A stretch of DNA of 32,000 bases from Alkanindiges sp. WGS2144 (GCF_043950625.1 NZ_CP171007.1), one strand, 5' to 3'. Shown: positions 3,409 through 29,284, numbered from the stretch's first letter. The notes: a model not told the origin generated them from the sequence alone. Numbers and translations are program-made.

Positions 3409-3846
3409 TTAGCGATCAGTCCAAGACTTACAATCAGCTGCAACATAAGAAGTATCTTTGCCTTTATACCAGCATTGAGCCCCTGTATCATTTAAAGTCA
3501 ATGCACCATTGCCTGCTTGACCATTTTTTGGTGTTGCTATTAAAGTCCAGCCGCTGGCTGTAGTAGTCGCTGGGCTAAAAGTAAGGTCGTATAGTGCAGT
3601 ACCTTGTTTGGGAATGACAGTGCCGCCATACACTGTATTGACTGTAGCACCAGCAAAATTACCATTAGCCGCTTTATACGTTTGCATACGCTGGGCAATT
3701 TGCAGCATTTCACTTTGGGCATCTACACGTTTAGTTCTTATAATGTATTGTGTATAAGATGGATATGCTATTGCCGCCAGAATACCAATAATTGCGACAA
3801 CAATCATAAGTTCTATTAGCGTGAAGCCTTTATTACCAGTTTTCAT
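3409..3846 (-). CDS. pilE: Type IV pilin-like minor pilin (PilE / Acinetobacter ComF-ComE type)
   Basis: It has a class III signal, 'MKTGNKG|[24 protein letters not shown]', with Glu at +5 and a C-terminal Cys pair (CWYKG...ADC). It is the last gene of the minor-pilin operon. Confidence 0.8.
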
Positions 3847-4291
3847 AATCGCTCAGTCCACAGTCATCATATCCACTAATACTATTAGTTGTCATACAGC
3901 GCTTGCCAGAACTTGTCATTAAAAAATTATAGTTGCGAGCATCTGTAGTCACTGCTTTCATCACCCATTTTTGCCCGAGTCCTTGTGTCAACGTTTTAGC
4001 AGTATCCGTTCCATCTTTTAGCTCTAAAGTATAAGCATTAGGTAAATTAACAGTCCCCATACTAAAATTTTGATAGCTGAAATTTCTCGCTTTATGACGT
4101 TCTAACTGTTCAGCTTGATTAAGCATTTCCTGCTGCATTTGTGCTGCTGCTGTGCGTCTGGCATACATCTGATAGCTTGGCAGCGCAATGGCTGCCAAAA
4201 TTGAAATTATTACTACTACCAGCATAAGCTCTATCAGAGTATAGCCTTTCCATGATCTATACTTAACGGCTGGGTTATTAAAATTTTTCAT
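3833..4291 (-). CDS. Type IV pilin-like protein (second PilE/ComE-like paralogue) with an atypical prepilin leader
   Basis: '[16 protein letters not shown]|[25 protein letters not shown]'. I take the ATG at 4291, which lies 1 nt after the pilY1 stop (TAA-T-ATG). The 3' end overlaps pilE by 14 nt. It occupies the pilY2 slot of the Pseudomonas operon. Confidence 0.7.
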
Positions 4292-4292
4292 A

Positions 4293-7200: not shown

Positions 7201-8381
7201 GCATCAATTGCTCTAATCATTTTTTGACGATGAGTTTCAGAAGCGGTACCACGATAAATGGTGGTACTTGTATAAGAAGCTGTAGCAGTTTGTGGAGTTA
7301 TTCGAGTATTAACTACAGTTACTCGATCTTTAGTTTGGGTTCTTTGTTGCTCAGTACAATTAAAAATTCCTCCTGTACAGGTTATATCTCCATTTTGAAT
7401 TGTATTATTTGTAGTACTTGTAGATGAGGTGGTAACTGTACCATTTTGAATATTAAGGTAACTAATATTACCTGTAGTGCTAGTCGGCGTGGTTCCGCTA
7501 AAATCGTTAACCTGTTTGGTAGTGCTTACCCAGGAATTACAGGTAATATTATTACTACTCCATTGCACACATTCTTGAGCAATTGTTGCAGAAGAATTGG
7601 CTGTGCCAGTTAAGCCCCATGGTGAAGTAGTTCCACTTATCCAACCTGTTGAAGAAGTTTGATTGGCCGATGATGGCCAACCTGAATTAGAGCTATCAGA
7701 AGGACTCCATGCACTCCAGCTGCCACATCCAATAAAACAGCTTCTAGTCTGGGTTTGGGTTCTTTGCTTCCAAGATGAATCAGTTTTGGTTTCTGTTTGT
7801 GTACGACTAGCTGGCTGAGAAATTGTTTGTACCGTTCTATATAGCTCTCTCACTCCTGGAAGAGCAGATGATTCACCCAGCGGCCTAGCTTCTAATTTAA
7901 TACGCCCTGTACTTTCACTGAACTCCGACAGACCTGTTACTAGTTTATCAGGTAATGGTGCTATCCCCTGTGCATCATCGCCTTGTAATAAAGTAACTAG
8001 TGCTTTTTTCAAGCGTGATAAGCGATCATAACATCTGCCATCAATACATTGATCTTTATTTTTAGTAGCTTGAGATACAGGACAATATTTAAGTGAGGTT
8101 GTGCTAATGCCATCACTTAAACTTTCTGTACTACAACCTTTAGAAGTTTTATAAGCAACACCAAAATCTGTGTAAATTGAATCCCCAGCACCACTATTAC
8201 CATCAGAACCCATACTGCCAGATACATCCAGCATAAACATCAATGTCATTTCTTTATCTTGCGGCGGTCTATACAGCTCAATATCACTCGCAAAACTTGG
8301 CGCAGGCTGTGCTAAACAGACCAGAGCAGTAATAGCACCTGACTTGCAGGCTACTTTTATATTTTCAATTATTTTATTCAT
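4293..8381 (-). CDS. pilY1: Type IV pilus tip adhesin / biogenesis factor PilY1 (Acinetobacter ComC-like), 1362 aa
   Basis: There is a signal peptide ending 'PSFA|SD'. N-terminal vWA MIDAS elements are 'MFMLDVSGSM' (D52-x-S-x-S) and 'IYFLTDGQP'. The C-terminal PilY1 propeller region carries an EF-hand-like Ca loop 'DRNNDGLVD' (residues 1082-1090, nt 5112-5138). Its position between pilX and the pilE-like genes also fits. Confidence 0.9.
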   Translation of the reverse strand: MNKIIENIKVACKSGAITALVCLAQPAPSFASDIELYRPPQDKEMTLMFMLDVSGSMGSDGNSGAGDSIYTDFGVAYKTSKGCSTESLSDGISTTSLKYCPVSQATKNKDQCIDGRCYDRLSRLKKALVTLLQGDDAQGIAPLPDKLVTGLSEFSESTGRIKLEARPLGESSALPGVRELYRTVQTISQPASRTQTETKTDSSWKQRTQTQTRSCFIGCGSWSAWSPSDSSNSGWPSSANQTSSTGWISGTTSPWGLTGTANSSATIAQECVQWSSNNITCNSWVSTTKQVNDFSGTTPTSTTGNISYLNIQNGTVTTSSTSTTNNTIQNGDITCTGGIFNCTEQQRTQTKDRVTVVNTRITPQTATASYTSTTIYRGTASETHRQKMIRAIDALEAFDSTPTGYAYAEVAAYLMGQTTKGQTGSGFNSAVQGEIRDADIYKKPVQIDSTKQCNSQGIYFLTDGQPQYYYNKSKSTLEDIMKKSLGIKATSFSCSNASTLGLRNSGYYNSGTMTKPNGWDCIGAYTKALLDPTLNPAGVIINTAVVGFGSDFSSGTGSDVLDAKDWGTLGEGGWYSANSEQAIVASVNDFINKLDKYIPSVTVGSATIPVDALDTQNVQPWAYFPQFDPKPSNTNTGVLTWLGNVKKYKTLNNSLVDKNNASITDSKGLLKDNPYDYWADPNITKVIQKEENGVKTEATVKVGGALSQLILGYNASAMPTERRIFTDRKIVVDPDNATANQISAIDSGSLNKLGKADFISSSANQFKEDPKRGYILALFGYNVNKTLADNINISPKDTNNQTQLEQLLSSNSNLRQMGAVMHSRPILLTQQGTTKYENDVLTYDNRDDLILFGTTQGVVHVVKAGKSATDTNAGKELFAFVPHEMIERQSHAFLNQESQSGILQYGVDGQWTAYTEYVTKKGTGSNTEPVVTVKGGKQWVYGGLRMGGKSYYALDLTDVSASDNSSVPKIKFRIDPASATSGALSHMGQSWSKPTIAWVNWKGARKLVMFVGGGYDMGYEADTFNQNNGVGAGVYMFDADNGELLWWASNNVSSNSNAENTTNALKASDMKYSVVGQIKTVDRNNDGLVDHLYFGDLGGQVWRVDLDNTSKSKTDAFAKRAVKILNMNTNDGKSPRFYSTPTFSIHNGGSSGLFGVITIGSGDLSSPMSAINHGNDAIYVVYDKDVAKPNLYQLADNKLQTNNVTKGTTGSTLASNGDGKTKTDLTRAGWYYPLTQKFRVLNDNVAIDSDLYVSVFDASKDLDNVSCSGGVRGDSNVHQFCLPYGQCTETVAGIIKPKNHADPIFLGKGNIGIAFGGTTGESSKDRSLVLNVPKPTGQNLPNYSGKLKFVSQRWYEKYAKAS

Positions 8382-8405
8382 TTCATTTGCTCCAATTCTG
8401 TCTTA

Positions 8406-9185
8406 TCAACTTTTGGTTGCATAGTTGATAATCGCATAATCCATTACCTGCCGATTATAAGGTACACCTAAATTTGAAAAACAGTCTGCTACCGTGTCAT
8501 TTGAAGGATAAGCCTCAACAGTGTCATTGGTGTAATTTTTAAAACAGTTCCCTACAGCTTGCTCAAAGCTACTTACGCCTGTGGGTAATGTGGTAGAAGC
8601 TGCTGCCCCTGGTATAACCGAAGTCACCACAATCCTGACAGGTTGTACTTCCTGCAATTGTACAGTGGCCAGGTCAGTACCTAATGGAAAAAATTTAAAT
8701 GGTGTATCTGCATTTAAGCTACCCTTTTTAACGGCAACCTGCGTAATGACTGCCGCTCTGCCGCTACTATAATCATTTGATTGCATTTGGCAAAAACCTG
8801 TTATCCCTAATTCATTATTTGTTATGCTTGTGCTGCTTGACCAGTACACAGTGCTTGCATCCCGTATATCGAACATATTGCTTCTATCTTTAGGCCGATA
8901 GCAAAAGACCAACTCTTTATTAATATAAGAATTTGGCTTAACAATGCCAAACATACCTAAAGCACTAATACTCTGTTGTAAGTTGCTATTAACCGAATTA
9001 TCACTTTCTATAGAAAAAAATACACTATCAGCAGTTTGCATTAATAGAGATTGCGCCTGACTGTTAGTTGCAATCGCCAGACTTGTTACACTTTGACGGA
9101 TCGCAAGCGTCCCTACTATGGTTACTATTACCAATAGGATAAGTACCACAATTAGCGTAGCACCTGACTGGCTTCGTATCTTCAT
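8406..9185 (-). CDS. pilX: Type IV pilus minor pilin PilX
   Basis: The N-terminus 'MKIRSQSG|ATLIVVLILLVIVTIVGTLAIRQS' is PilX_N-type, with no Glu5, as in P. aeruginosa PilX. The start overlaps the pilW stop (TAATG). Confidence 0.75.
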   Translation of the reverse strand: MKIRSQSGATLIVVLILLVIVTIVGTLAIRQSVTSLAIATNSQAQSLLMQTADSVFFSIESDNSVNSNLQQSISALGMFGIVKPNSYINKELVFCYRPKDRSNMFDIRDASTVYWSSSTSITNNELGITGFCQMQSNDYSSGRAAVITQVAVKKGSLNADTPFKFFPLGTDLATVQLQEVQPVRIVVTSVIPGAAASTTLPTGVSSFEQAVGNCFKNYTNDTVEAYPSNDTVADCFSNLGVPYNRQVMDYAIINYATKS

Positions 9186-10231
9186 TATAATGACTCCGTT
9201 AAACCATAACCATTACGGAGCGCAACAGTCTGAGTGATGACTTGCCGCAAATATTTACCAGAAGCCTGTGCATCATTGGTTAGTTTCACTTTCTGATCCA
9301 GAATATTATATTCTTGTGTACCTGTAACCAGACTGTCATTGGTTATATCGGCGCCTCTTACCAACATGCCTAGTTGTATTGACATAATTCTGGGTCGTGG
9401 GATGGTTGTAGTCAGATCCATATCATTTGTACCATTGCCCATATAATCGTTAACCGACATATAACGGAACTCATCACTGTCATTTTCTTTAACACCCAGC
9501 AATATATGAAAATGATCAACACGACGCATAAGGATTTCACCCCCTCCGCCATAACCAGTAATTTCTGTAGGTAAAGTTGAAACATTGGTTTTGTATCTAC
9601 CAGCATCACATGCCAGAGCCAAATCATTATTATTGTTACCATCTTTTCTCAGAAAATAGCGCTGTACAATATATGTACCATCATCAATATCCTGCTGCGT
9701 AATATTTTGCCCCTCACAATCAGTAGTATTAACCTCAACAGCTTTATACTGAATCACTAATTGATCGCTTGTAGAGATAGCTGTGTCGTCGCCTGATTTA
9801 CCAGTAATATTAGTTACACCTGTCCATTGGTTGCTACTCCCTACGGTTTGTCCTGCCCCCCGAGTCAATAATACTTTTGGCACCTTGCTGGCAACTAGAT
9901 TGTAGGGCAAATTGGCTGATATTGTTTGCTGCTCAGCCTCAGTAAGCGTGGGATAACTTGTTAGCCCCGTGAGCACAATACCTCCGTACAGATTACGGTC
10001 ATTAATAACTGCCTGTACTGCATCCAGATTTGCTTTACGTATGTCTTGCAACAAATAATTTAGGCCAAAATTTCCATTATCCTGAATCTCCGCCATAGAA
10101 CGCTGTAAGTTCAGACTTGCCTGGCCTGTTATAAATAACTGTGTCGCAGCCGCAACAATAATTAAACCAAGTACAATAGATACCATCAACTCAACAAGAG
10201 TAAACCCAGCCTGCTTTTTATTAATAAACAT
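9185..10231 (-). CDS. pilW: Type IV pilus minor pilin PilW
   Basis: 'MFINKKQAG|FTLVELMVSIVLGLIIVAAATQLF'. The size and operon position match PilW. I take the ATG at 10231, just after the pilV stop; the track start at 10258 would overlap pilV. Confidence 0.8.
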   Translation of the reverse strand: MFINKKQAGFTLVELMVSIVLGLIIVAAATQLFITGQASLNLQRSMAEIQDNGNFGLNYLLQDIRKANLDAVQAVINDRNLYGGIVLTGLTSYPTLTEAEQQTISANLPYNLVASKVPKVLLTRGAGQTVGSSNQWTGVTNITGKSGDDTAISTSDQLVIQYKAVEVNTTDCEGQNITQQDIDDGTYIVQRYFLRKDGNNNNDLALACDAGRYKTNVSTLPTEITGYGGGGEILMRRVDHFHILLGVKENDSDEFRYMSVNDYMGNGTNDMDLTTTIPRPRIMSIQLGMLVRGADITNDSLVTGTQEYNILDQKVKLTNDAQASGKYLRQVITQTVALRNGYGLTESL

Positions 10232-10233
10232 TA

Positions 10234-10800
10234 TTAGTAAGCCTCCAATACGATACACTGGGAGGCGGATGTATAACTACCATTTTTGGTGCAATTACCT
10301 GAACCGTTACCATCATTTGGGCTAGTATCGCCCCAAGCGACATAAATACAGTTTCTTTCTCTTTGTAATGAACCTGCACAATCGCTTAAGCCTACTTTCA
10401 TGCCCATTGCTCCTGCCTTGTACAGTATTTGGCTAGCATCCTGAGCTGCTAAAATTTCACTGGTACATTTATTATTTTGATAGCAGTTTCTCCACGTATA
10501 TTCATCAAGGGATTCTTTTCCTATAAATGCTTTTATATATGCACTTATTTTCTTGTCTGTATCTTTTCCGTCCTCATCTTTTACTACAATATTTTTTGAT
10601 AGACCCACTTGATTAGCCCTTATACGCTCAGCTAAATCTCTGGCTAGATTCATTGCCTGAATACGATTATTTGCTTCTGTAGTAGCGTCAACTGCCCTTA
10701 ATTGTAAGGCAGTAAAACCAAGTACGCCTACAGCTAGAAGAGTGAGAGCCACCAGCACTTCAATCATGCCAACGCCCTGATGTTTCTTGATACTACTCAT
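10234..10800 (-). CDS. pilV: Type IV pilus modification / minor pilin PilV
   Basis: 'MSSIKKHQG|VGMIEVLVALTLLAVGVLG' carries the PilV-type 'MIEVLVAL' signature. The ATG at 10800 overlaps the fimU TGA (ATGA coupling). Confidence 0.8.
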   Translation of the reverse strand: MSSIKKHQGVGMIEVLVALTLLAVGVLGFTALQLRAVDATTEANNRIQAMNLARDLAERIRANQVGLSKNIVVKDEDGKDTDKKISAYIKAFIGKESLDEYTWRNCYQNNKCTSEILAAQDASQILYKAGAMGMKVGLSDCAGSLQRERNCIYVAWGDTSPNDGNGSGNCTKNGSYTSASQCIVLEAY

Positions 10801-11240
10801 GTACATGTACCCTCTGCTTTAAAGTACTGCGCTCCTGTTCTTGTCAAGCTAATCGTTTTTGTAGTACTTGTTTTTGAATTACAAATCACAAAATCAGTAT
10901 CTCCTGTTGCATCTTTTACTGTTCCGTTCGGATTAAACACAACACTTGTCGTAGATGAAGTTAAATTACTATTTATAGTAGGATTCCAATAATAATTAGT
11001 TTGAGTATTAGGACTATCAGAGTTCAACGTCACTGTAACTTCTTTTCTCAATAACGCAGCCTGACTTCTTGCAGTACTTAAGGTACTTACCAAATCCCTA
11101 GTAGTAGAATTCAAACGCTGCTTAGCAACCATATTACTCATCGACGGCGCAGCAATCATGGCTAAAATGGCCACCACCGCAATGGTCACCATTAACTCAA
11201 CCAACGTAAAGCCGCGGTTGCCCAACCGACGATCCATCAT
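10797..11240 (-). CDS. fimU: GspH/FimT-family minor pilin (FimU/FimT)
   Basis: 'MMDRRLGNRG|FTLVELMVTIAVVAILAMIAAPSM...RDLVSTLSTARSQA' is GspH-like. It is the first gene of the operon. The ATG at 11240 is preceded by AAGGTGG, and the GTG at 11249 lies inside that RBS. Confidence 0.75.
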   Translation of the reverse strand: MMDRRLGNRGFTLVELMVTIAVVAILAMIAAPSMSNMVAKQRLNSTTRDLVSTLSTARSQAALLRKEVTVTLNSDSPNTQTNYYWNPTINSNLTSSTTSVVFNPNGTVKDATGDTDFVICNSKTSTTKTISLTRTGAQYFKAEGTCT

Positions 11241-11332
11241 AGATACCACCTTGCCAGTTTGTGCCCATCTTTGAACACTTTTCCAGTCATCAGATTAAAT
11301 AGACGATGAACGCCAGACAAGCATAAAGCGAC

Positions 11333-13265: not shown

Positions 13266-15374
13266 ATGTTGACGATGAATACGCCCAATACTAATCAATT
13301 CGCAGCGACTCAACCCGCCGCTACTCAGCCTGCACTTGCCAGAGCGACCATTGAGCTACCTGACTTTTCAACCTTAAGCCTTGATATTTTAAAACAACAG
13401 GTAGAACAAGCATTACAGCAAGCCAAACAGCAACTACAGCAGGTACCCACGCAATTTGACAACACCCGGCAGGCGCTGGATTGTATTGATGCGCTGGATC
13501 ATGCAGAAAATGACTTACAGCAAGCCTGGGGTGTTTTGTCGCATCTCAACGCCGTTAAAAACAGCCCTCAGCTTCGTGAGCTATATCAGGCCATTTTGCC
13601 TGAGTTGAGTAATTACTACACTCAGCTTGGCCAGCATCAGGGCTTATATCAGGCTTATGAAATTGTGCAATCCTCAGCAGAGTTTGTCCAGTTAAGTACT
13701 GCTCAGCAGGGCGCTATCCAGTTGGCTATTCGGGATTTTAAGCTCAGCGGTGTCGCGCTTGAAGGTGATGCCAAACAGCGCTACGCTCAGATCTCTGCCC
13801 GTTTATCCGAGCTATCTTCGCACTTTTCCAACCATGTATTGGATGCAACCCAGGCCTGGTCAATGCCGCTGGATGATGCACAACTAAAAGGTTTACCTGC
13901 CAGCAGCATTGCTCTACTGGAACAACTGGCACAGCAGCGCGGCCAGTCTGGTGCGTTAGCCACCCTGGATTTTCCGGCTTATCTCGCCATTATGACCTAT
14001 GCTGATGAGCGCTCGTTGCGTGAAACAATTTACACAGCCTATGTCACCCGTGCATCAGAGCTTGGTGAGGCGCAGTTTGATAACAGTGAACTCATGCAGG
14101 AAATTCTGGCGCTACGGCAGGAAATGGCCGAACTGTTGGGCTTTGTAAATTATGCCGAATATTCACTGGCCAGCAAAATGGCGCCTTCCGTGACTGAGGT
14201 CAAGCAGTTTTTACTGGATCTGGCAGACAAAGCTCGTCAACCTGCACTTGCCGAGCTTGAGCAATTGCAGCAGGAAGCCAAAGCTTATGCCATTGGTCAG
14301 GTTATGCCATGGGATACGGCCTATTTATCTGAAAAAATCAAGCTGCGTGAATACAACCTGTCGCAAGAGCAACTCAAACCCTATTTTCCCGCACCTGTCG
14401 TTATTGAAGGGTTGTTTAAAATTGCTGAACAGTTATATGGCATTCAGATTGAACAAAAACAAGCGGCAGTATGGGAACCAGATGTCTACTACTATGAGGT
14501 GAGCGAACACGGCAAAGTGATTGCCGGTTTTTATTTTGACTTATATGCCCGTAGCAATAAACGGGGCGGTGCATGGATGAGCGGCTTTCGTTCGCGCATG
14601 AAAACCCGTACTGGTATCCAGTTGCCGGTTGCCTTTATGGTGGGCAATTTTACACCGCCCGTGGGCAATCAACCCGCCCTATTAACTCATGATGAACTGG
14701 TCACGCTATTTCATGAGTTCGGTCACGGCCTGCATCATTTACTGACTGAAGTGGATGTAATCCATGTGGCCGGTACCCATGGGGTCGCCTGGGATGCTGT
14801 AGAACTACCTAGCCAGTTTATGGAGTTCTGGACCTGGGATAAACAGGCCTTAGGTTTGATCAGCCGTCATTTTGAGCATGAGAGAACCCTACCCGGAGAA
14901 TTACTTGATGCCCTGCTGGCTGCCCGTTATTTCCAGACAGGTATTCAAACGCTTAGACAGCTGGAATTTGCCCTATTTGATCTGAATATTCACAGCACTG
15001 TACCTGCACCGGATCAGCACCAGATACAGCAAATTCTGGATGAAGTACGCCAGCAGGTTGCAGTACTGCCCAATATTGCCCACAACCGTTTCCAACACAG
15101 TTTTAGCCACATTTTTGCTGGTGGTTATGCCGCAGGCTATTATTCCTACAAGTGGGCTGAGGTGCTGGCCAGTGACGCCTTTGACCGTTTTGAACAAGAA
15201 GGCTTATTTAACAAGGATACCGGTAAAGCCTTCCGCGATGCCATTCTGGCAGTGGGCGGCAGTGTCGATGCCCTAACTGCTTTTAAAAACTTCCGTGGGC
15301 GTGAACCGGAACTGGCTGCCCTACTGCGGCATAGTGGCTGGATCGACAGTCAACCCGCACCAGTCTCGCTATGA
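13266..15374 (+). CDS. prlC: Oligopeptidase A (M3 family zinc metallopeptidase)
   Basis: It has the 'LFHEFGHGLHHLLT' HExxH zinc motif, and the length and overall similarity fit PrlC. The true start could be the ATG at 13275. Confidence 0.9.
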   Translation: MLTMNTPNTNQFAATQPAATQPALARATIELPDFSTLSLDILKQQVEQALQQAKQQLQQVPTQFDNTRQALDCIDALDHAENDLQQAWGVLSHLNAVKNSPQLRELYQAILPELSNYYTQLGQHQGLYQAYEIVQSSAEFVQLSTAQQGAIQLAIRDFKLSGVALEGDAKQRYAQISARLSELSSHFSNHVLDATQAWSMPLDDAQLKGLPASSIALLEQLAQQRGQSGALATLDFPAYLAIMTYADERSLRETIYTAYVTRASELGEAQFDNSELMQEILALRQEMAELLGFVNYAEYSLASKMAPSVTEVKQFLLDLADKARQPALAELEQLQQEAKAYAIGQVMPWDTAYLSEKIKLREYNLSQEQLKPYFPAPVVIEGLFKIAEQLYGIQIEQKQAAVWEPDVYYYEVSEHGKVIAGFYFDLYARSNKRGGAWMSGFRSRMKTRTGIQLPVAFMVGNFTPPVGNQPALLTHDELVTLFHEFGHGLHHLLTEVDVIHVAGTHGVAWDAVELPSQFMEFWTWDKQALGLISRHFEHERTLPGELLDALLAARYFQTGIQTLRQLEFALFDLNIHSTVPAPDQHQIQQILDEVRQQVAVLPNIAHNRFQHSFSHIFAGGYAAGYYSYKWAEVLASDAFDRFEQEGLFNKDTGKAFRDAILAVGGSVDALTAFKNFRGREPELAALLRHSGWIDSQPAPVSL

Positions 15375-17548: not shown

Positions 17549-19768
17549 CTATTGATACCAGCCAAACATTTTAAAGATATAAGGCGCAAAGGTGACTACC
17601 ATCAGTGCAGGGAACATCACAATAATAGGCAATATCCAGCGCTCATAGCGGTAGTAGAACTTGGTGTACTTGGCCTTGGCCTCCGCATCCGCTGCCAGCA
17701 CCTCTTCATCCCCCACCGACAATCGCGTGAGCAGGTGGTTAAGTGCCACAGGCGGGGTCACATAGCCCAGCTCAAAGGCCACCAGACAGATCATCCAGAA
17801 ATGAATTGGATGGATGCCATTGGCAAAAGCCACCGGCGCAATGGAAGCTGCCACCAAAATTACCGCACCAAACGGATCGGTAGTCATACCAATACCAGCC
17901 AGCAACAAGGCAATAAATAATAGTGAAATATAAATATTGTCCAGGTGTGTTGGCAGTAAATGCACAATTTCAGTTTTTTCTACTAGACCGCCTACACTGG
18001 CTGACAATGCCATCAGGATAATCAGCGCACCAATGTGCCCAACTGTTTCTGAGGTCGCAAAACGAATAGCAGCCTCAAAGCTGGAACGACGCTCAACCCC
18101 GTGCGAGTCATGACTGCGCAAGTACGGAGAAGATTGCTCATGCTCCTGAATCATTTTTTCATGATCTTCAGCCGCTTGGCCATATGCCATGGCAGCTGAA
18201 GCAGGTTCACGACGTACTTTGTCAAAAAATACCACGGCCAATAAAATCAGCGGCAGGATCATGGGTGCCGTGAATTCGTTCATTTCAGTATTGAGGGCAT
18301 ACTTATAGAACAGCACCACCAGCGCAGCAATAATCACATAAGGGATCACCGGGCCTATTGCACGCACCATACCAGGTATTGCCACCTTGGGCGAGTTGAT
18401 ACGGAACTTGGATTCGGCAACAATTAACGACACACCCAGGAACAGGAATGAAATAAACCAGAATACATAAATACCATGGCTAAACAGCTCATCAGAAGTC
18501 ACGTGCTTGCTATCGAGCATGGCAATCAAGACCACCAATAAACATGGACGAATCACCATACCCAGCGTACCGGACATGGCAGATACCGCCAGGGCATATT
18601 GCCGGCGGGCACCAGAGTTCCATACTTCCTTATAGATCAGCGCACCTGCTGCCACAACAAAAATACCTGATGCACCGGTATAAGCAGTTGGAATGGCGGC
18701 GGCAATCAGAATTAACCAGGTTAAGGTCTCAGGTGAGAAGTTCCAGGGGCGCAGGATGTTCAGGAACAAGTCCATCACACGGGTCTGGGTTAACAGCATA
18801 CCTACCCAGATAAATAAGCCCAGCGCCAGGAAAATAGCCACATAGTCGGTCAGGAACCCCACGTAAATGGCCTGACCCACCGAATAATCCATAAAGAAGA
18901 TAAAGGCCGTACCTGTGATAATTGCCATCCACGCATACAACGGCACCGCCAGCAACGCCAGGCCAAAACTGCCGCCTTCTTTTTTCGGCGCAGACGGCCT
19001 GATTAACCGGTAAGCACTAATTAATGTAATGGTAATAAATAAAATAGCCCATAGATAATTAATAATGGCAGCCTTGGTTTCTACCGCAACCCCGGAGTGC
19101 GACAACGACAAAATATAACTGATGGCAGAAAAAGCCAGCATGCCGTTACCAATCATCATCGCAGCATCATGCACCAGATAATCCACTTTGGTCACTGCGG
19201 GGCGTAATCCAATATGGTGCTTATTTAAGGTCGCAGTAATAGCAGCAATGGCCACCATAATCACCAGAAATAAGGTGCGGTTCTCAGTACCAAAATGGAA
19301 AATGGCAAAGAAGCCCGTTTCAATGGTGCGAAATACTTTTACGCTGGGATGGTTATCAATATAGCTTTGTGTGTTTTCATAAAATTGATGTTTTTCTTCA
19401 CACACGGCCTGAGCAGCCAGCAAGGACTGTCGTACTTCCTCGGGATCTTTTGGCCCAAACAGATCAGCAAATGGGTCATCATTGGCTGAGCCTGCTGCCA
19501 TTTGCTGCTGAACCTGAGCCTCAATATTCGGATGTCGTTCACAACTGGGTGCCTTCGAGTCAGCACGCAGAAAAGAATACTGTACCCCCGTGGCTGGATC
19601 GCCATATAACTTTTCACCTACCCGCAGCAACTGGCCGTGTATCATTTCGCCAGTGCCAATAATAAGCGTTAAAATGAGTATTAAAAAAACAGGAAGGGTT
19701 GAAAACCATTCCGACCATGTACGATTTAGAAAGCCAGATTTGGCTTCTGGCGTAGGATTGGATTGCAT
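17549..19768 (-). CDS. Large polytopic membrane protein, DctM/TRAP-type large-permease-like (possibly a fused Q-M type)
   Basis: 739 aa with many TM helices. The segment 'YTGASGIFVVAAGALIYKEVWNSGARRQYALAVSAMSGTLGMVIRPCLLVVLIA' parallels the DctM motif region (..SGS..A.....G......M...GY.......a.sgtlG.iIPPS). It also has a hydrophilic loop of about 110 aa after TM1. The call is by eye only. Confidence 0.55.
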   Translation of the reverse strand: MQSNPTPEAKSGFLNRTWSEWFSTLPVFLILILTLIIGTGEMIHGQLLRVGEKLYGDPATGVQYSFLRADSKAPSCERHPNIEAQVQQQMAAGSANDDPFADLFGPKDPEEVRQSLLAAQAVCEEKHQFYENTQSYIDNHPSVKVFRTIETGFFAIFHFGTENRTLFLVIMVAIAAITATLNKHHIGLRPAVTKVDYLVHDAAMMIGNGMLAFSAISYILSLSHSGVAVETKAAIINYLWAILFITITLISAYRLIRPSAPKKEGGSFGLALLAVPLYAWMAIITGTAFIFFMDYSVGQAIYVGFLTDYVAIFLALGLFIWVGMLLTQTRVMDLFLNILRPWNFSPETLTWLILIAAAIPTAYTGASGIFVVAAGALIYKEVWNSGARRQYALAVSAMSGTLGMVIRPCLLVVLIAMLDSKHVTSDELFSHGIYVFWFISFLFLGVSLIVAESKFRINSPKVAIPGMVRAIGPVIPYVIIAALVVLFYKYALNTEMNEFTAPMILPLILLAVVFFDKVRREPASAAMAYGQAAEDHEKMIQEHEQSSPYLRSHDSHGVERRSSFEAAIRFATSETVGHIGALIILMALSASVGGLVEKTEIVHLLPTHLDNIYISLLFIALLLAGIGMTTDPFGAVILVAASIAPVAFANGIHPIHFWMICLVAFELGYVTPPVALNHLLTRLSVGDEEVLAADAEAKAKYTKFYYRYERWILPIIVMFPALMVVTFAPYIFKMFGWYQ

Positions 19769-20014: not shown

Positions 20015-20638
20015 TTAACTTTTTCTGTCAGGATGAACTGACAGGCGACCAGGCCAGCAAATAACGACCAGATACCCGGCCAAAGCATATACCAAGCCGA
20101 CAAAAACTCCGATCTGGTGAGATTCAATTAATACAGGCGCCTGAATAAGCTGTGCCGTCTGGCTATAGCCCAGCCATTTTTCACACAAAATTTTAAGCGC
20201 AATACACAGTAATACCAGCCCGGCAAACTTTTGTTCGGTTTTAATTCTCAGGCTTTCCAGAGCAACCACCACATACAGGCCATGTAGAACACCAGACAAC
20301 CCGGCATAGGCATAGACGGTAGGTACAGCCCAATACAAACCTGCACTTAGCAAAGGCGACAGTATGACTAAGCCAGCCAGCAAAGTGATAGGGCGAAGAC
20401 GCGGAAAAATTAGCGGAAGGCAGGCTAAAGCTAGCATATTAAGCAGATAGTGACGCCAGCCTACATGTACCAGATGTGCAGTCCACCAGCGCCATGGCTC
20501 TGTCAGCATGAGGTCATGCTGATAAATAAAGTAACTGGCTTTGAATTGCAATAATGCGGAAACCAGCACAATACCAGCAATCAGCCAGATGACTGGCGGG
20601 ATATCCGGCTTATTACCGCTGAGCATTTTGAAGGGCAC
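20015..20638 (-). CDS. rrtA: Rhombosortase (rhomboid-family intramembrane serine protease, RrtA type)
   Basis: 'EPWRWWTAHLVHVGWRHYLLNMLAL' supplies the WR..T and H-x3-N motifs. 'YAGLSGVLHG' holds the catalytic GxSG Ser, and 'ESHQIGVFVGLVYA' the TM6 His. The size, about 200 aa, is typical. Confidence 0.8.
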   Translation of the reverse strand: MPFKMLSGNKPDIPPVIWLIAGIVLVSALLQFKASYFIYQHDLMLTEPWRWWTAHLVHVGWRHYLLNMLALACLPLIFPRLRPITLLAGLVILSPLLSAGLYWAVPTVYAYAGLSGVLHGLYVVVALESLRIKTEQKFAGLVLLCIALKILCEKWLGYSQTAQLIQAPVLIESHQIGVFVGLVYALAGYLVVICWPGRLSVHPDRKS

Positions 20639-20700: not shown

Positions 20701-21867
20701 TTATTCAATAGTCAGCTCATCGTTATCAGCGTCATTTTCTGGTTCACCAGTATTTTCCGAAGTATCAGCCTCTGAACCCTCGTCTGCTGATTCAGGAGCA
20801 GATAACATATCATCAGCCGCACCATCATCGTCCAGCAGTCCTTCCAGCGACAAACCGGAATCTTCTACTGCTGATTCATCCCAGAAATGCTGATAGCCAT
20901 CTTCTGGTGTACGCATGCCAGTATTTTCTGTCCAGTAACGATCAGAAGCATTTTGAATCATTTGACGGGAAATGGCGTCAACCAGACGATAGTTCTGGTT
21001 AACTGGTTTTCCTTCCTCAATGGATTGGCCATAGGTGCGTAGTGCATCGCGGATTTTATTTTGGTCGCCATTGGCCTGGGCGGCAATCACATATAGTGCA
21101 TGTGGTAGACGCACCCCGGCACGCTCACCCATAGCCGCTGATTCTTTCATGACCTGCCATGGATCAGGTTTTCCATCGCCAGCACCTGGCAGCAATGTCC
21201 AGATTGCCGCACGAATCGCATTAGGTGCCCCCCAGAACTGCTCGTTGTTCAAACAGCTCATTCCACGCTCAACTACTGCTGCAATGTCTTTGGGGATATT
21301 TACCGCCCCACCCGAGTTGATATCGTTAGTTACTGCCTGTAAACCGCTGACCATACCCATCAGATACACTGTTTTATCCAGATCTGTTTTCATACCAGGG
21401 CACTGGTCACCCAACTTGACTTTATACTTCGCCTCATAGTGCTCAGCAAATAGTAAATAAGCAGCATACTGACGGCGTGCAGCAGTTTCAGCCCAGCGTT
21501 TTTGCTCGATACGGGCGTCTTTGGCTTCTTCAATTTGGTTGGCTTTGGCAGCCCGTAGGTAACGCAGTTCTGCATTTAATGCATTGTTTTCTGCGCACAC
21601 TCCTGCCGAGGTATAGAGTAACACCCCAATTTTGGCGGGATCGGCACCCATGGCCTTGGTTGACATAATCAATGGCGTAGTGGCATTGCCACTGGCACAG
21701 GCCATATCAGCGTCATCCATTGCCACAATAGGGGGAACAATATGTTTTTCAGCAAAGCCCAAAGCAACGTTGGCTCCGGTTTTAATTACTTGAGAGCAGC
21801 CTGAAAGTAAAAAAGCAGCGACTGCGGTTGTCACCATGCCTTGGCGAATTCTACGGGCAGTAGACAT
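20701..21867 (-). CDS. Lipoprotein of unknown function with a polyacidic C-terminal tail (possible TatT-like helical-repeat protein, unverified)
   Basis: The ATG at 21867 follows GAGGA; the track start at 21882 is a TTG. 'MSTARRIRQGMVTTAVAAFLLSGC' is a signal peptide plus lipobox. A largely helical body of about 300 aa follows. The last ~70 residues are D/E/S-rich ('EDSGLSLEGLLDDDGAADDMLSAPESADEGSEADTSENTGEPENDADNDELTIE'). Confidence 0.7.
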   Translation of the reverse strand: MSTARRIRQGMVTTAVAAFLLSGCSQVIKTGANVALGFAEKHIVPPIVAMDDADMACASGNATTPLIMSTKAMGADPAKIGVLLYTSAGVCAENNALNAELRYLRAAKANQIEEAKDARIEQKRWAETAARRQYAAYLLFAEHYEAKYKVKLGDQCPGMKTDLDKTVYLMGMVSGLQAVTNDINSGGAVNIPKDIAAVVERGMSCLNNEQFWGAPNAIRAAIWTLLPGAGDGKPDPWQVMKESAAMGERAGVRLPHALYVIAAQANGDQNKIRDALRTYGQSIEEGKPVNQNYRLVDAISRQMIQNASDRYWTENTGMRTPEDGYQHFWDESAVEDSGLSLEGLLDDDGAADDMLSAPESADEGSEADTSENTGEPENDADNDELTIE

Positions 21868-22156
21868 TTGTAAGATCCTCAATGTTGTTTTTGTCCTAAA
21901 CCCGCAAAAGATAGCATGAAGAATGAATAAGGTACAATTATATTGGTCAGGAGCCGATTAACTGATTTTCAACCTAAGACTATTTTCTATGTCATAGGCT
22001 TAAACGAGCAAAATTTAATTTCACCATCGTTTTACCTTTATATACAAAAGCCCTACGACCTTATGCTTTGTTACAGCCTTAAGCGCTTATTCCTGCTTTA
22101 CATAAATATTTATTGATAAGCTGGTCTCCATACCTGGTTTAAATTGGAGTAAAGGC

Positions 22157-23275
22157 ATGTCTTATCAAGAGCTGAAAAAAATCTTACAGGATTTACAACA
22201 GGTAACTGCCAAACCCGCTGTAAGTATTTTTGTTAAAACTCACCGTACCTTTCCTGATAATGAAAAAGACCCAATTGCATTAAAAAATCAACTAAAGCTG
22301 GCAGAAGAACAAATCACCCAACAGTATGATGCAGCCACTGCACAAAAAATCATGCAGCTTATTAGGCAACAAAGCCGCGAGCTTGATTTCAACTACAACC
22401 TGGATACGCTGGCGATTTTTGCCACGCCTGAACAGGCTCGCCTACTGCGTTTTCCGTTTGAGGCAAAAGAACGGGTAGTCATTAATGAGCGCTTTGCCAT
22501 AAGGGATATCCAGCGCGACCTGCTCACTGCATTACACTACTATGTGGTGGTGGTTACCCGTGAAAAAGGTCGGCTGATTGAAGCCATCAATAATAATATT
22601 GTGCATGAGTTTAGTTCCGAGGACACCGCTACTGCCGATATTTTGCCTTTTGGCACTTTTCCAATGGCCTCTGACAACCTGACCGCCACGCGTGTTGATG
22701 AACGCGCCGGGATAGAAGACAACTATGTTAAGGAATTTATTAACCGGATTGATAAAAACGTACAAGTCATACGGGCCAAGAATGAATTACCCATTATTGT
22801 CGTAGGCGATAAGCGCAATATCGGTTTTTACCGTGAAGTATGCGATCAACCACATGCCATTATTGCAACGGTTGATAATGTCATCCATATGGATAATAGC
22901 CATGCCCAGCATATTATTGACAGCCTTCAACCAGCTTTAAAAGATTATCAGCAACAACGCCAAAAACAGGCTCAGCAGGATTTACAAAACCTGCATGGCA
23001 CTGCACGCATCCGTACCGATTTGCAGGAAATTTACCGCGCCGCACTGGAGGGCAATACCATTACATTATATGTGGCGCAAGGCTGTATGATTTATGGCCA
23101 GCTGGATGCTGAACACCGGACAGTTCATCTGCAAAATGAAGACGATGCCGCACAGCAAATTGATATTATTGGCGAGCTTATTGACCGGGTACTTGCAAGT
23201 GCTGGCAAAATCATTTTTATGGATCAACATCTGATGGGAACCCATGAGCAAGTAGTGCTGGAAACACGCTACTGA
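22157..23275 (+). CDS. aeRF1/Pelota-like (baeRF-type) protein lacking GGQ and NIKS; candidate Balon-type ribosome hibernation factor
   Basis: The N-terminal block is 'PAVSIFVKTHRTFPDNEKDPIALKNQLKLAEEQI'. The central block is 'HYYVVVVTREKGRLIEA'. The C-terminal blocks are 'LQEIYRAALEGNTITLYVAQG' and 'IGELIDRVLASAGKIIFMD'. Together they mirror the three-domain eRF1/Pelota layout, and no GGQ motif is present. The gene has its own GGAG RBS and terminator. Confidence 0.5.
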   Translation: MSYQELKKILQDLQQVTAKPAVSIFVKTHRTFPDNEKDPIALKNQLKLAEEQITQQYDAATAQKIMQLIRQQSRELDFNYNLDTLAIFATPEQARLLRFPFEAKERVVINERFAIRDIQRDLLTALHYYVVVVTREKGRLIEAINNNIVHEFSSEDTATADILPFGTFPMASDNLTATRVDERAGIEDNYVKEFINRIDKNVQVIRAKNELPIIVVGDKRNIGFYREVCDQPHAIIATVDNVIHMDNSHAQHIIDSLQPALKDYQQQRQKQAQQDLQNLHGTARIRTDLQEIYRAALEGNTITLYVAQGCMIYGQLDAEHRTVHLQNEDDAAQQIDIIGELIDRVLASAGKIIFMDQHLMGTHEQVVLETRY

Positions 23276-23307
23276 GTTTCTTGCGTGTTAAAGTTTTTAT
23301 ACATGCT

Positions 23308-23336
23308 AATCCCTGCCTGAGGTGGGGATTGTTTTT
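23308..23336 (+). terminator. Intrinsic terminator of the aeRF1-like gene
   Basis: AATCCC (23308-23313) pairs with GGGATT (23325-23330), followed by GTTTTT. Confidence 0.6.
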
Positions 23337-23376: not shown

Positions 23377-23403
23377 AAAAACAAAAGCCCGCCGAAGCGA
23401 GCT
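23377..23403 (-). terminator. Intrinsic terminator of pnp
   Basis: On the minus strand it reads AGCUCGC-UUCG-GCGGGCU (one G-U pair, UUCG tetraloop) followed by UUUUGUUUUU. Confidence 0.8.
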
Positions 23404-23427
23404 TTTGATTATATGGATAACGCTGTA

Positions 23428-25521
23428 TTAAGCTTGTGGAATATCTTTCATAGATAACTTAATACGACCCCGCTGATCTACATCCTGAACCTGCACACGT
23501 ACTTGCTGGCCTTCAGTCAATACATCTGCCACGTTGGCAATACGCTCATTGGAAATTTGTGAAATATGTAGCAGGCCATCTGTGCCCGGCAGAATATTCA
23601 CAAATGCGCCAAATTCAACAATACGAACCACCGTACCGGTATAAATGGCACCTGGTTCCACTTCAGCAGTCAGCGCCTGAATTTTGGCAATGGCAGCCGC
23701 TGTAGCCGCTTTGGTTTCACCAAACACACGCACGGTTCCATTGTCTTCAATATCAATCGACGCACCGGTTTCTTCGGTCAGGGCGCGAATGGTTGCACCA
23801 CCCTTACCAATTACATCACGAATTTTTTCCGGATTAATCTGCACCACGGCATAGGTTGGGGCATGGATACTAATTTCTGGGCGGGCGCGGTTAAGTACCT
23901 GATTCATGGCATTCAGGATATGAATACGGCCAGAATATGCCTGATTTAAGGCCACTTCCATGATTTCTTCGGTAATGCCTTCAATCTTGATATCCATTTG
24001 CAGCGCGGTAATCCCGTTGGCAGAACCAGCTACTTTAAAGTCCATATCGCCCAAGTGATCTTCATCACCTAAAATATCGGATAGTACTGCAAAACGCTCG
24101 CCTTCTTTCACCAGACCCATGGCTATACCAGCCACTGGTGCTTTTAATGGAACACCTGCATCCATTAACGCAAGACTGGCACCACATACCGACGCCATAG
24201 ATGAAGAACCATTGGATTCAGTAATGTCCGATACCACGCGCAGCACATACGGGAAACGGTCACTTGGTGGCAGTACAGCCTGCACACCACGGCGTGCCAG
24301 ACGGCCATGGCCAATCTCACGACGCTTAGGGCCAGTTTCACGGCCAGTTTCGCCCACTGAGTAAGCAGGGAAATTGTAATGCAGCATAAAGTTGTCGGTC
24401 TTGGTGCCAGATAAAGTATCCACCATCAGCGCATCACGGGTGTTGCCGAGTGTCGCAGTGACCAGCGCCTGAGTTTCACCACGGGTAAACAGGGCAGAAC
24501 CATGGGTACGTGGCAGCACACCAACCTGAACATCCAGCGCACGAACGGTCTGGGTATCACGGCCATCAATACGCGGCTTGCCTGACAGGATGTTATCGCG
24601 CACGGTACGGTATTTTAAGTCTTCAAACAGGTTGGCAACTTCGTCGCTTAAATCCTCTTCACTGCCTTCTGGCGCAAACTCAGCAAGAGCAGCCTGCTTT
24701 AAAGCGTCCAGCGCACCATAGCGCTCCTGCTTCACAGTTAAAGTATAAGCCTGGGAGACTTCAGCTTCAAAACGAGCTTTAAGCTTGTCTTTTAATTCAG
24801 TATTAACTGCCGGAGCGACCCAGTCGCTTGGCTGAGCACCTGCTTCGCTGGCAAACTCCTTAATGGCAGCAATGGCAACCTGCATTTCATCATGACCATA
24901 TAACACCGCACCCAGCATCTGGTCTTCGGACAGCTCTTTGGCTTCTGACTCCACCATTAGCACAGCGCTGTCAGTACCAGCAACTACCAGATCCAGATCA
25001 CTTTGTGCCATTTGGGCAAAAGATGGGTTTAATACATACTCGCCATTGATAAAACCAACGCGGGCGGCACCAATTGGGCCTTTAAATGGCGTACCAGAAA
25101 TGGCCAGCGCCGCAGAAGTACCCAACATGGCAGCAATATCAGCATCCATGGTTTTGTCAGAAGACACTACAGACGCCGTGACCTGAACTTCATTGTAGTA
25201 GCCTTCCGGGAACAGGGGACGAATTGGACGGTCAATCAGACGGGAAATTAAAGTTTCTGCTTCAGATGCACGGCCTTCACGCTTGCCATAACCACCCGGA
25301 ATACGGCCAGCCGCATACTGTTTTTCCTGATAATTAACTGTCAGGGGGAAGAAATCCTGACCTGCTTTGGCAGTAGGTTGCGCTACCACAGCAACCAGCA
25401 CATTCACACCACCCATGGTGACAAAGACGGTATTGGCCTGGCGTGCAATACGACCGGTTTCCAGAACTACGGTATGCTGGCCATACTGGAATTCTTTACG
25501 AACGATATTAAACATGGACAT
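23428..25521 (-). CDS. pnp: Polyribonucleotide nucleotidyltransferase (PNPase)
   Basis: 697 aa. '[27 protein letters not shown]' opens two RNase PH domains, followed by KH and S1 domains. It lies downstream of rpsO. Confidence 0.97.
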
Positions 25522-25791
25522 TTATGTTTTTTCCTTGAATACGTTTTTGGTGGCGCAAGGCCCCTAACAACTGTTATCTATAGTGATTTGTGATTTATCG
25601 TTTGAATAACAGGCGTTAGAAGCCGCTTCACGCCATACTTTAAAATACAAAGAAGGAGCGAATCATCGCCCCTTCCCCAATACTAATGAGATTTGCTCAT
25701 TAGCGCTAACCAACTAGCATGCTGCCTGCTGTCCAGATCACCTGCCACACAACATGGCAGGTTGCACAGACAGTGGTTCATCTGTCTAGTC
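25522..25791 (-). promoter_or_regulatory. rpsO-pnp intergenic leader with stacked hairpins (rpsO terminator and pnp 5' leader)
   Basis: The hairpins are AGACAG/CTGTCT (~25768-25787), CCTGCCA/TGGCAGG (25741-25761) and TAATGAG/CTCATTA (25684-25702). In E. coli this spacer holds the rpsO terminator and the RNase III-cleaved pnp leader. A homologous role here is inferred, not shown. Confidence 0.45.
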
Positions 25792-26061
25792 TTAACGACG
25801 CAGACCCAGTGCACCAATCAGCGCCTGATAACGGCTGCTATCTTTGCCTTTTAGGTAATCCAGCAGTTTGCGACGCTGGTTTACTTTACGGATTAGACCA
25901 CGACGGCTGTGGTGGTCATGTTTGTGGGTTTTAAAGTGAGATTGCAGGTCATTGATCTGCGCAGTCAATAAAGCCACTTGAACTTCTGGTGAACCAGTGT
26001 CGTTTTCGGCACGGGCAAATTTTGCAATGATATCAGCGCGGTCAGCGTTGTTTAAAGCCAT
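25792..26061 (-). CDS. rpsO: 30S ribosomal protein S15
   Basis: '[60 protein letters not shown]' is canonical S15. A GGAGAG RBS lies upstream. Confidence 0.95.
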
Positions 26062-26291
26062 GAGGACTCTCCGAGATGCTTAAAATAAAGATGCGTAAAA
26101 TGTCATGGTGGTTACAGGAATATTTTTTCTGTGACCACAAATGCCGTGCATCACTACAGCAGTGGCGTATTTTAAAGCAAAGATGATGTGATTGCAAAAT
26201 TGTTTTAATACTTACGGCATTTCGGACACTGACTTTTGCAGCGCCTGCAGGCAGAATTCATGATGATATCGATATTCATAATGAGGCTCAT

Positions 26292-28184: not shown

Positions 28185-28368
28185 GTTATTCTCCCTGCTC
28201 TTCAACGTGCTATAGCGCTCCTATACCCTAACAAGTGCCAGGGTAAATTGGCATTGAAGCTTTATTTTAAAATGTTTAATTAGGTAAGTTAGCCAATACG
28301 AATTACAGGCACCGCCAAAAGCGTTTTGGGAACGACGCTGTTTTTATGCGATAGAATTTATAGTTATT

Positions 28369-29251
28369 AGACCTCTTGCGAAAGTAAAAACTGCCTCAAT
28401 ATAGATTTCATGAAATATCAGAAATTAAACCGTTTTTCAGATTCTGAATTCAAGCGCTTGGTTGGTGTACCTCGACCAGTTTTTAGTGAAATGGTCGAAG
28501 TTTTAAAAGAAGCAGAATCACTTAAAAAGAAATCTGGGCGTCCTCATACTTTAGTTATAGAGGATCAATTATTATTAACACTCAATTACTTACGGAATTA
28601 CAGCACTCAATTGGAATTGGCTGCAAATTACCATATCGCTGAAAGTAATGTGAATCGAACCATTAAAAAGGTTGAAGATGCATTAATGAAATCAAGGCGT
28701 TTTACCCTGCCAAAACGAAGCATTACAACAGCAGACGAACAATTTAACTGGGTCATTATTGATGCTACAGAATGTTCAATAGAACGCCCGAAAAAAAAAT
28801 CAGAGTAAGTTCTACAGTGGTAAAAAGAAGAAACATACGCTAAAAGCCCAAGTGATCTATCATCCGAAGAGTAAACAAATCATAGGAGTAGATATATCTT
28901 CTGGCAGTCAGCATGATATTAAATTGGCAAGAAAAACAGTAAAAAAATTCAAACATTTTGAATATGTTATGACCGATTTAGGGTACTATGGGTTAGAGCA
29001 AGATGGCTTTAAATTATTGATGCCAATAAAGAAAAAGAAGAATTTACCCTTATTTGATGTTGAGAAAAAGTACAATAAAATGATTGGAAAAATACGAGTT
29101 GTAATCGAACATATTAACAGTCAATTGAAAAGATTTAGAATACTAAGTGAACGCTATCGAAATCGACGGAAAAGATTCGGTTTACGCATTAACTTAATCG
29201 CTGCACTGGTAAACCGGATGAACTTGCAATAACGACTTTCGCAAGAGGTCT
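28369..29251 (+). mobile_element. 883-bp insertion sequence, IS5 superfamily (small ~0.9-kb subgroup; subgroup not resolvable by eye)
   Basis: It has perfect 17-bp terminal inverted repeats, AGACCTCTTGCGAAAGT (28369-28385) and ACTTTCGCAAGAGGTCT (29235-29251). ATT occurs on both outer flanks (28366-28368 and 29252-29254) and is a candidate 3-bp target duplication. The element is A+T-rich relative to its surroundings. Confidence 0.85.
28410..29232 (+). CDS. IS transposase (HTH plus DDE, Harbinger/DDE_Tnp_4-like) encoded in two frames that meet at an A9 run
   Basis: orfA (28410-28808) ends '...VIIDATECSIERPKKKSE*'. The +1 frame is open from 28783 and reads 'QSKFYSGKKKKHTLKAQV...VMTDLGYYG...VVIEHINSQLKRFRIL', supplying the second D and the E of a DDE triad. 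The A9 run is at 28791-28799, and deleting one A would give a single ORF. Confidence 0.8.
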
Positions 29252-29284
29252 ATTATTTTATCAACTAATTGTTAAGCTTAATTA

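Follow-up and report, generated by a model that had tools for sequence, protein, structure and literature searches.

The stretch of DNA analysed in this study, referred to below as the window, is 32,000 nucleotides long and comes from Alkanindiges sp. WGS2144 (GCF_043950625.1 NZ_CP171007.1). The subject of the analysis is the gene at positions 22157-23275 of this window, which a preliminary description, made from the sequence, had presented as a monocistronic open reading frame (ORF) of 372 amino acids (aa) that encodes a candidate Balon-type ribosome hibernation factor. The coordinates given there were exact and the gene does have its own terminator. It is an intact stand-alone transcription unit with a Shine-Dalgarno sequence before the start codon, and it runs towards pnp, from which it is separated by a spacer of 152 bp. 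Because two hairpin-plus-T-run terminators face each other in this spacer, the gene is taken to be monocistronic. From the evidence presented below we put the probability that the product of this gene is an orthologue of the aeRF1-like hibernation factor of bacterial ribosomes, Balon, at about 0.87.

Membership of the Balon family

When the protein was compared with profile hidden Markov models (HMMs), as the preliminary description had proposed, it was found that the NCBIfam equivalog NF052287, "AOC03_06830 family ribosome hibernation factor", matched it with 430.5 bits against a cutoff of 330, the alignment running from residue 10 to residue 372 of the protein and covering positions 1-361 of the 361 positions of the profile. 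In Pfam, baeRF_family3 (PF18845) matched residues 127-300 over profile positions 1-168 of 168 (E=6e-29, 102 bits against a gathering score of 31.5) and the other baeRF families gave weak matches only (E<=10). At E<=10 no enzyme domain, no signalling domain of methyl-accepting chemotaxis proteins (MCPs), no HAMP domain and no transmembrane or other membrane domain was found by Pfam in this protein, which matched baeRF families only; the earlier description had likewise noted no enzyme signature. When all PDB sequences were searched with phmmer, the sole real match was Balon, chain B of 8RD8, 8RDV and 8RDW, which are the 70S-Balon complexes of Psychrobacter urativorans, and this match was full length (E=7e-95). 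The family profile matched the PDB Balon chain with E=3e-181; in the same search of the PDB it did not reach the mycobacterial Balon homologues, aeRF1 or Pelota. With BLASTP the protein aligned end to end with P. urativorans Balon (AOC03_06830, 369 aa) with 43% identity, 66% positives and 8 gap positions. A motif search showed that GGQ, NIKS, NIKL and any GG dipeptide are absent from the 372 residues, which agrees with the earlier description for GGQ and NIKS, and the protein thus lacks the catalytic and codon-reading motifs of the aeRF1 proteins.

The homologues of this protein number 218 at E<=1e-10, and an alignment of 31 family members has 52 invariant columns; at the sequence level this conservation is far beyond chance. 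The next-closest proteins are 57-66% identical and come from metagenomes, from a metagenome-assembled genome (MAG) and from Acinetobacter radioresistens. Identity to the window protein is 46-52% in another group of Acinetobacter proteins and 42-48% in those of Psychrobacter. A genome scan with the single protein as the query returned no relatives while the alignment as the query returned 187, of which 80 were kept as loci; the genome-locus counts given below refer to these 80 and the residue counts to the 120 best homologues. Alkanindiges is a genus of the Moraxellaceae, and the preliminary description was correct in placing the host in the same family as P. urativorans.

The UniRef name of this exact protein is "AOC03_06830 family ribosome hibernation factor", and for this reason its identity as a Balon-family protein is already on public record and is not new. 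As a discovery it carries little weight, since the family was described in 2024 and a curated HMM exists, although it is of some value as a data point. At NCBI the window protein is entered as 'hypothetical protein', and the PDB sequence records continue to list the Balon chain itself (chain B of 8RD8, 8RDV and 8RDW) under the name 'methyl-accepting chemotaxis protein'. Labels of other family members are mixed and include hypothetical, chemotaxis protein, baeRF3 domain-containing and 'alkylhydroperoxidase family protein YurZ'. Both the 'hypothetical protein' label and the legacy 'methyl-accepting chemotaxis protein' label should be replaced.

Predicted structure and conserved loops

A model was built with AlphaFold2 (AF2) from the alignment of the 31 family members, with the PDB sequence left out. 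Its mean predicted local distance difference test (pLDDT) score was 86 and its predicted template modelling (TM) score was 0.78, and pLDDT fell below 50 only at residues 176-179. When this model was searched against the PDB with Foldseek the first three ranks were taken by 8rd8_B, 8rdw_B and 8rdv_B (E=2.5e-44 to 1.9e-43, TM 0.63-0.65), so that in the comparison with aeRF1, Pelota and Balon that had been suggested it is Balon that ranks first. Ranks 4, 5 and 9 were the ribosome-bound mycobacterial proteins Msmeg1130/Rv2629, and the remainder were aRF1, eRF1 and Pelota/Dom34. The predicted fold is a three-domain aeRF1-like fold that is closest to that of the solved Balon. The matches to NF052287, to the PDB chain and by Foldseek all point to the Balon-type hibernation factor of the preliminary description. 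The link to the mycobacterial proteins and to aeRF1 is drawn from structure comparison alone, here with a predicted model, as it was from structure comparison in the original paper. Msmeg1130/Rv2629 (8V9J, 8V9L, 8V9K) resemble the model in fold and shape (E=5e-19 to 2e-12, TM 0.60-0.68), they too have no GGQ or NIKS, and according to the literature these two bind the A site. They differ from the window protein in that they are only 11-16% identical to it and lie beyond the reach of sequence profiles, and in that they have larger insertions in the C domain, no HP dipeptide and, according to the literature, genes in hypoxia or stress operons.

At residues 18, 127, 288 and 338 the protein has the four peptide blocks that the preliminary description had cited. 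The first of them had been read as a baeRF pattern; the block is present but that placement did not hold, since baeRF_family3 covers residues 127-300, and it is instead within the Balon family itself that the N-terminal block stands out, as its most conserved stretch. In the model the best-conserved segment is the N-domain loop that connects strand 1 with the first long helix (helix 2), together with the start of this helix, where T28, H29, R30, P33, N35, D38, I40, A41, L42, K43, N44 and L46 are invariant in the 31 family members. This conservation fits the statement in the Balon paper that the ribosome-contacting residues are the most conserved ones (PMC10901736).

The only His-Pro dipeptide of Balon is H27-P28, in THREHPAND, whereas the window protein has Phe-Pro at this place (F32-P33 in THRTFPDN, 22250-22255). 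Since the published texts give no residue numbers for the HP motif or for the lasso loop, the bL27 trap or the beta-loop, the mapping of these motifs to residues is one that we infer, and for the HP motif the alignment points to H27-P28 of Balon. The invariant Pro is preceded by His in 100 of the 120 best homologues, by Phe in 17, by Tyr in 2 and by Ser in 1. Of the 80 genome loci, 68, from Psychrobacter and Moraxella lincolnii, have His at this place and 12 have Phe, the latter being the nine Acinetobacter loci, the MAG L001, a Moraxella MAG and Enhydrobacter sp. 8BJ. These counts indicate that an aromatic residue is the rule at this position and that it is the Psychrobacter branch that is marked by the name-giving His, and it appears that this His of Balon is replaceable by Phe. 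According to the Balon paper it is the extended loop, and not the HP dipeptide, that is shared with the mycobacterial homologues.

Two further segments of the model were compared with the ribosome-contacting parts of Balon. The loop before the long helix of the middle domain, residues 161-180, stands at what we take to be the position of GGQ in aeRF1/eRF1. It has no GGQ, it has an invariant F168-P169 and its model confidence is low. Judged by this eRF1 position and by the description of the lasso loop in the paper, it is a candidate equivalent of the Balon lasso loop, and its low confidence would fit the report that, when no P-site tRNA is present, the lasso loop is disordered (PMC10901736). 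The window protein can be aligned with Balon across the candidate loops, residues 161-180 and 240-249, with a single deletion of 3 residues. In the C domain, the predicted beta-hairpin at residues 313-325 aligns with the corresponding segment of Balon and is a candidate equivalent of the beta-loop insertion that contacts EF-Tu in the guanosine diphosphate (GDP) form. The coordinates of these and the other features of the locus are given in Table 1.

Table 1. Features of the Balon-family gene, its protein and its surroundings (positions in the window)
Feature	Position	Strand	Basis or remark
Conserved non-coding block, candidate promoter/operator	22042..22122	+	-115 to -35 from ATG; alignments
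Shine-Dalgarno sequence GGAG	22146..22149	+	7 nt before ATG; sequence reading
Balon-family coding sequence	22157..23275	+	ATG at 22157, end of stop codon at 23275; 372 aa plus stop
Candidate HP-motif loop, T28-H29-R30-T31-F32-P33	22238..22255	+	alignment with Balon T23-H24-R25-E26-H27-P28; secondary structure
Loop before long middle-domain helix, residues 161-180	22637..22696	+	GGQ position of aeRF1; candidate lasso-loop equivalent
C-domain predicted beta-hairpin, residues 313-325	23093..23131	+	DSSP strands 313-317 and 322-325; variable segment
Domains of the model	residues ~1-125 (N), ~126-282 (middle), ~283-372 (C)		AF2 model
Intrinsic-terminator-like hairpin, 11 pairs, with T run	23307-23331, with T run to 23337	+	32 nt past the Balon stop codon
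Intrinsic-terminator-like hairpin of convergent pnp	23382..23407	-	context, outside the Balon unit
pnp	23428..25521	-	TIGR03591, 1039 bits; NCBIfam equivalog
rpsO	25792..26061	-	TIGR00952, 124 bits; NCBIfam equivalog
M3-family oligopeptidase gene	13266..15374	+	orthologue of the peptidase that adjoins Balon in Psychrobacter; synteny marker
Divergent upstream neighbour of the Balon gene	20701..21882	-	ORF on the opposite strand

Proposed function

Helena-Bueno et al. (2024) found Balon in the A site of nearly all ribosomes upon cold shock or in stationary phase (PMC10901736). Its N domain contacts A1492 and A1913 via the "HP motif" at a distance of about 10 Å from the mRNA channel, because of which its binding is mRNA-independent and compatible with RaiA, and Balon can indeed bind together with RaiA (PMC10901736). 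Its middle domain has no GGQ, places a lasso loop round A2602 and traps the N-terminal tail of bL27, leaving the peptidyl-transferase centre inert, and it is via a beta-hairpin insertion that its C domain binds the GDP form of EF-Tu (PMC10901736). A-site binding is known for P. urativorans and, in vitro, for the mycobacterial homologues.

By orthology, the function of the window protein would be mRNA-independent occupancy of the A site of idle ribosomes without peptide release. The protein would enter the 70S A site when growth stops, as in cold shock or stationary phase, and its N-domain loop THRTFPDN would contact the decoding centre at 16S A1492 and 23S A1913 and leave the mRNA channel untouched. 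Because the channel would be left untouched, both vacant ribosomes and those that still carry mRNA and peptidyl-tRNA could be its targets. The GGQ-less middle domain would lie on the peptidyl-transferase centre with the peptide kept in place, the C domain would present a surface to EF-Tu(GDP), and the net outcome would be ribosomes that are reversibly silenced and protected. The same end result, ribosomes that are translationally silent and protected, is reached by HPF/RaiA and RMF, but these have unrelated folds and different binding sites, namely the 30S mRNA/tRNA channel and the anti-Shine-Dalgarno region.

The window protein and P. urativorans Balon are alike, besides their length, 43% identity, three-domain aeRF1-like fold and absence of GGQ and NIKS, in the loop framework THRx[H/F]PxNxxDxIALKNQL, in coming from Moraxellaceae, and in being encoded by a stand-alone gene in a pnp/M3-peptidase neighbourhood. 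They differ in the Phe-Pro of the window protein and in its loop at the GGQ position, which has about 3 residues fewer. Several observations weigh against assigning the Balon function to this gene, among them that identity to the characterised Balon is only 43%, that the His of the eponymous HP dipeptide is replaced by Phe, and that the "TGDGGSDRS" proteins of Psychrobacter have about 3 residues more in the loop at the GGQ position. We regard the Phe-for-His replacement and the shorter loop as variation within the family. To these is added that the TM score of the model against ribosome-bound Balon, 0.63-0.65, is not above 0.8, which is probably due to a difference in domain arrangement between a model of the free state and the bound state. 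A scan for the sigma-70 consensus upstream of the gene found no good site. Lastly, raiA/hpf is the commonest neighbour of Balon in other phyla (PMC10901736), and neither raiA/hpf nor rmf was found in the window, or up to 6 kb away from any of 87 related loci, in a search of limited sensitivity with E. coli probe sequences. According to a 2025 preprint the Moraxellaceae are without RMF (10.1101/2025.11.04.686544).

As an alternative, this could be a diverged baeRF protein that has kept the Balon fold but does a different job in Acinetobacter and Alkanindiges, either as a quality-control or rescue adaptor or with an altered contact to the decoding centre via Phe. That FP in place of HP is fixed in the Acinetobacter-side clade would speak for such a divergence, but the replacement is that of one aromatic residue by another at a base-contacting position, and because FP also occurs on the Moraxella/Enhydrobacter side (loci L068 and L076) it is not an innovation specific to this clade. 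The clade is set apart from the Psychrobacter/Moraxella clade in the tree, has an indel in the GGQ-position loop and has its own conserved upstream block, and no experimental studies of its members were found in the literature; against this, the framework of the N-domain loop is otherwise invariant, the score is well above the equivalog cutoff of NF052287, and no new domains or partner genes accompany the divergence. We consider a changed function of this kind unlikely.

It is far less probable still that the protein is a working aeRF1-like or Pelota-like factor in translation termination or in the rescue of stalled ribosomes. Its three-domain fold is the same as that of aRF1/eRF1 and Pelota/Dom34, with which it has in common the A-site-shaped architecture, and common ancestry of Balon with these proteins has been inferred (PMC10901736). 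The window protein, however, is without GGQ, without a GG dipeptide and without NIKS or loop A, and with no GGQ no peptide release would be expected, just as with no NIKS or loop A neither a codon nor an empty mRNA channel would be read. Sequence profiles do not reach aeRF1 or Pelota, to which identity in the structural comparison is 8-14%. Bacteria terminate translation with RF1/RF2, which also argues against such a role. Balon itself keeps the peptidyl-transferase centre inert, and it differs from aeRF1/Pelota in using a different surface of EF-Tu, and the GDP rather than the guanosine triphosphate (GTP) state (PMC10901736).

The least credible of the alternatives is that the protein belongs to a conflict or defence system, as has been proposed for several baeRF families, or a methyl-accepting chemotaxis protein, and it is effectively refuted by the domain searches. 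The Pfam family does belong to the baeRF set, and 'methyl-accepting chemotaxis protein' is found in the PDB and in some UniRef names, but the chemotaxis label sits on the very chain that the cryo-EM entries call Balon and no MCP signalling, HAMP or transmembrane domain is present in Pfam at E<=10. A defence-system context was also rejected, as PADLOC had no match for the Balon-family protein or its neighbours, and these neighbours are housekeeping genes. An orthologue of Balon that acts as a hibernation factor remains the reading that we favour.

The conserved upstream block

Upstream of the gene lies a non-coding block of about 80 bp that also precedes the genes of the five closest homologues, although the six genes together stand in three different genomic contexts. 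In these homologues it was found at about 1170-1255 in locus L081, at about 7850-7935 in L083 and at equivalent upstream positions in L001, L086 and L087, and it is not common to the more distant Acinetobacter clade. The invariant pieces of the block are TAC, TTGTTACAG, CTGC and TTAnTGnTAA; the block and its pieces are single-copy in the window. By eye the block has no convincing sigma-70, sigma-54, sigma-32, sigma-E or LexA-type arrangement. It is probably a promoter or operator that travelled with the gene, and such a portable element, shared by the closest relatives, could help to find the regulator of the Balon gene. An RNA element in the block was considered and rejected, as RNAalifold gave 3 invariant pairs, -0.12 kcal/mol and no covariation. 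Rfam had no family at gathering score anywhere in the 32-kb window, the block included.

The neighbourhood and the pnp question

The preliminary description had remarked on pnp and rpsO next to this gene. The convergent arrangement is as described, with both genes on the minus strand, but an operon with pnp-rpsO was rejected because the genes are convergent and have separate terminators and because pnp is absent from the loci of the closest homologues. Those homologues are flanked by TusA and CorC-Lnt or by a radical-SAM gene and DUF4385. The adjacency to pnp is best explained as what is left of an ancestral location and not as functional coupling. In 66 of the 80 genome loci an M3-family oligopeptidase gene is the divergent upstream neighbour of Balon, and in 47 of those 66 pnp has the same orientation as Balon and is found about 4.3 kb upstream of it. 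The loci with pnp are those of Psychrobacter, including some whose proteins are 82-84% identical to the solved Balon, while Moraxella lincolnii has the peptidase alone. The M3 peptidase of the window is about 52% identical to its Psychrobacter/Moraxella orthologue, and it is followed by a small ORF, a pairing that is also found in five Psychrobacter loci.

The order in the window is M3 peptidase (+), the small ORF, five genes, Balon (+), pnp (-) and rpsO (-). The window and Psychrobacter thus have the pnp/M3-peptidase neighbourhood in common, but it is rearranged, in that in Psychrobacter pnp is about 4.3 kb upstream and co-oriented and the M3 peptidase is divergent, whereas in the window Balon adjoins pnp and is convergent with it.

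The divergent neighbour of the Balon gene encodes a protein of 393 aa that has a signal of the lipoprotein type (LSGC) and a C-terminal tail that is strongly acidic, and it had no match in Pfam, NCBIfam or PADLOC. It adjoins a rhombosortase gene (20015..20638) and the gene (17549..19768) of a DctM-like membrane protein of 739 aa, which has a long N-terminal extension. On the other side of the locus, Rfam had no match in the leader regions of pnp and rpsO (25522-25791 and 26062-26291). In E. coli the leaders of both genes carry known regulatory RNA structures.

Evolution within the Moraxellaceae

In a neighbour-joining tree of 85 proteins, one of the two groups held Acinetobacter, MAGs and the Alkanindiges window, and the other held Moraxella/Enhydrobacter and Psychrobacter; this is a distance tree, rooted at the midpoint without an outgroup and without support values. 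Phylogenomics likewise places Alkanindiges with Acinetobacter and Moraxella with Psychrobacter (PMC7498684). It has been proposed in the 2025 preprint that Balon was acquired by the ancestor of Moraxella and Psychrobacter after the split from Acinetobacter (10.1101/2025.11.04.686544). An older presence fits our data better, because the gene tree mirrors the species split and because the Alkanindiges copy shares the neighbourhood of Psychrobacter, and this suggests that Balon predates the split of Acinetobacter from Moraxella/Psychrobacter and was later lost or relocated. We hold this conclusion only loosely on account of the kind of tree from which it is drawn. When it is taken together with the upstream block, a fuller account can be offered tentatively, and we would give it slightly less than even odds: Balon would have stood in the rpsO-pnp/M3-peptidase neighbourhood of the common ancestor and would have been lost or relocated in most Acinetobacter, while a subclade of Alkanindiges and A. 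radioresistens-like members would have its own cis-block of about 80 bp that moves with the gene between loci and that would point to a dedicated regulator of hibernation. Orthologues of Balon extend to Alkanindiges and several Acinetobacter species, and this range bears on how hibernation is organised in the Moraxellaceae and on the proposed timing of the acquisition of Balon.

Other features of the window

A type IV pilus minor-pilin cluster occupies 3409-11249 on the minus strand and comprises two prepilin-type genes, pilV, a further GspH/FimT-like pilin and a gene for a 1362-aa PilY1-like protein, in which the beta-propeller match is weak; ORFs of 259 and 357 aa in the same cluster had no NCBIfam match. 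Beside it, a 123-aa ORF at 3036-3407 on the plus strand has a match to the Uma2 putative restriction endonuclease family that is confined to the C-terminal part of the profile (positions 89-157 of 172), and it is probably a truncated remnant. Further downstream an insertion sequence of the IS5 family of about 890 bp lies at 28365-29255 and is bounded by terminal inverted repeats of 21 nt that are 95% complementary. The transposase is divided between the ORFs 28410..28808 and 28852..29232, and a run of nine A residues at about 28791-28799, near the end of the first of these, looks like a site of programmed frameshifting rather than a sign of a decayed gene.

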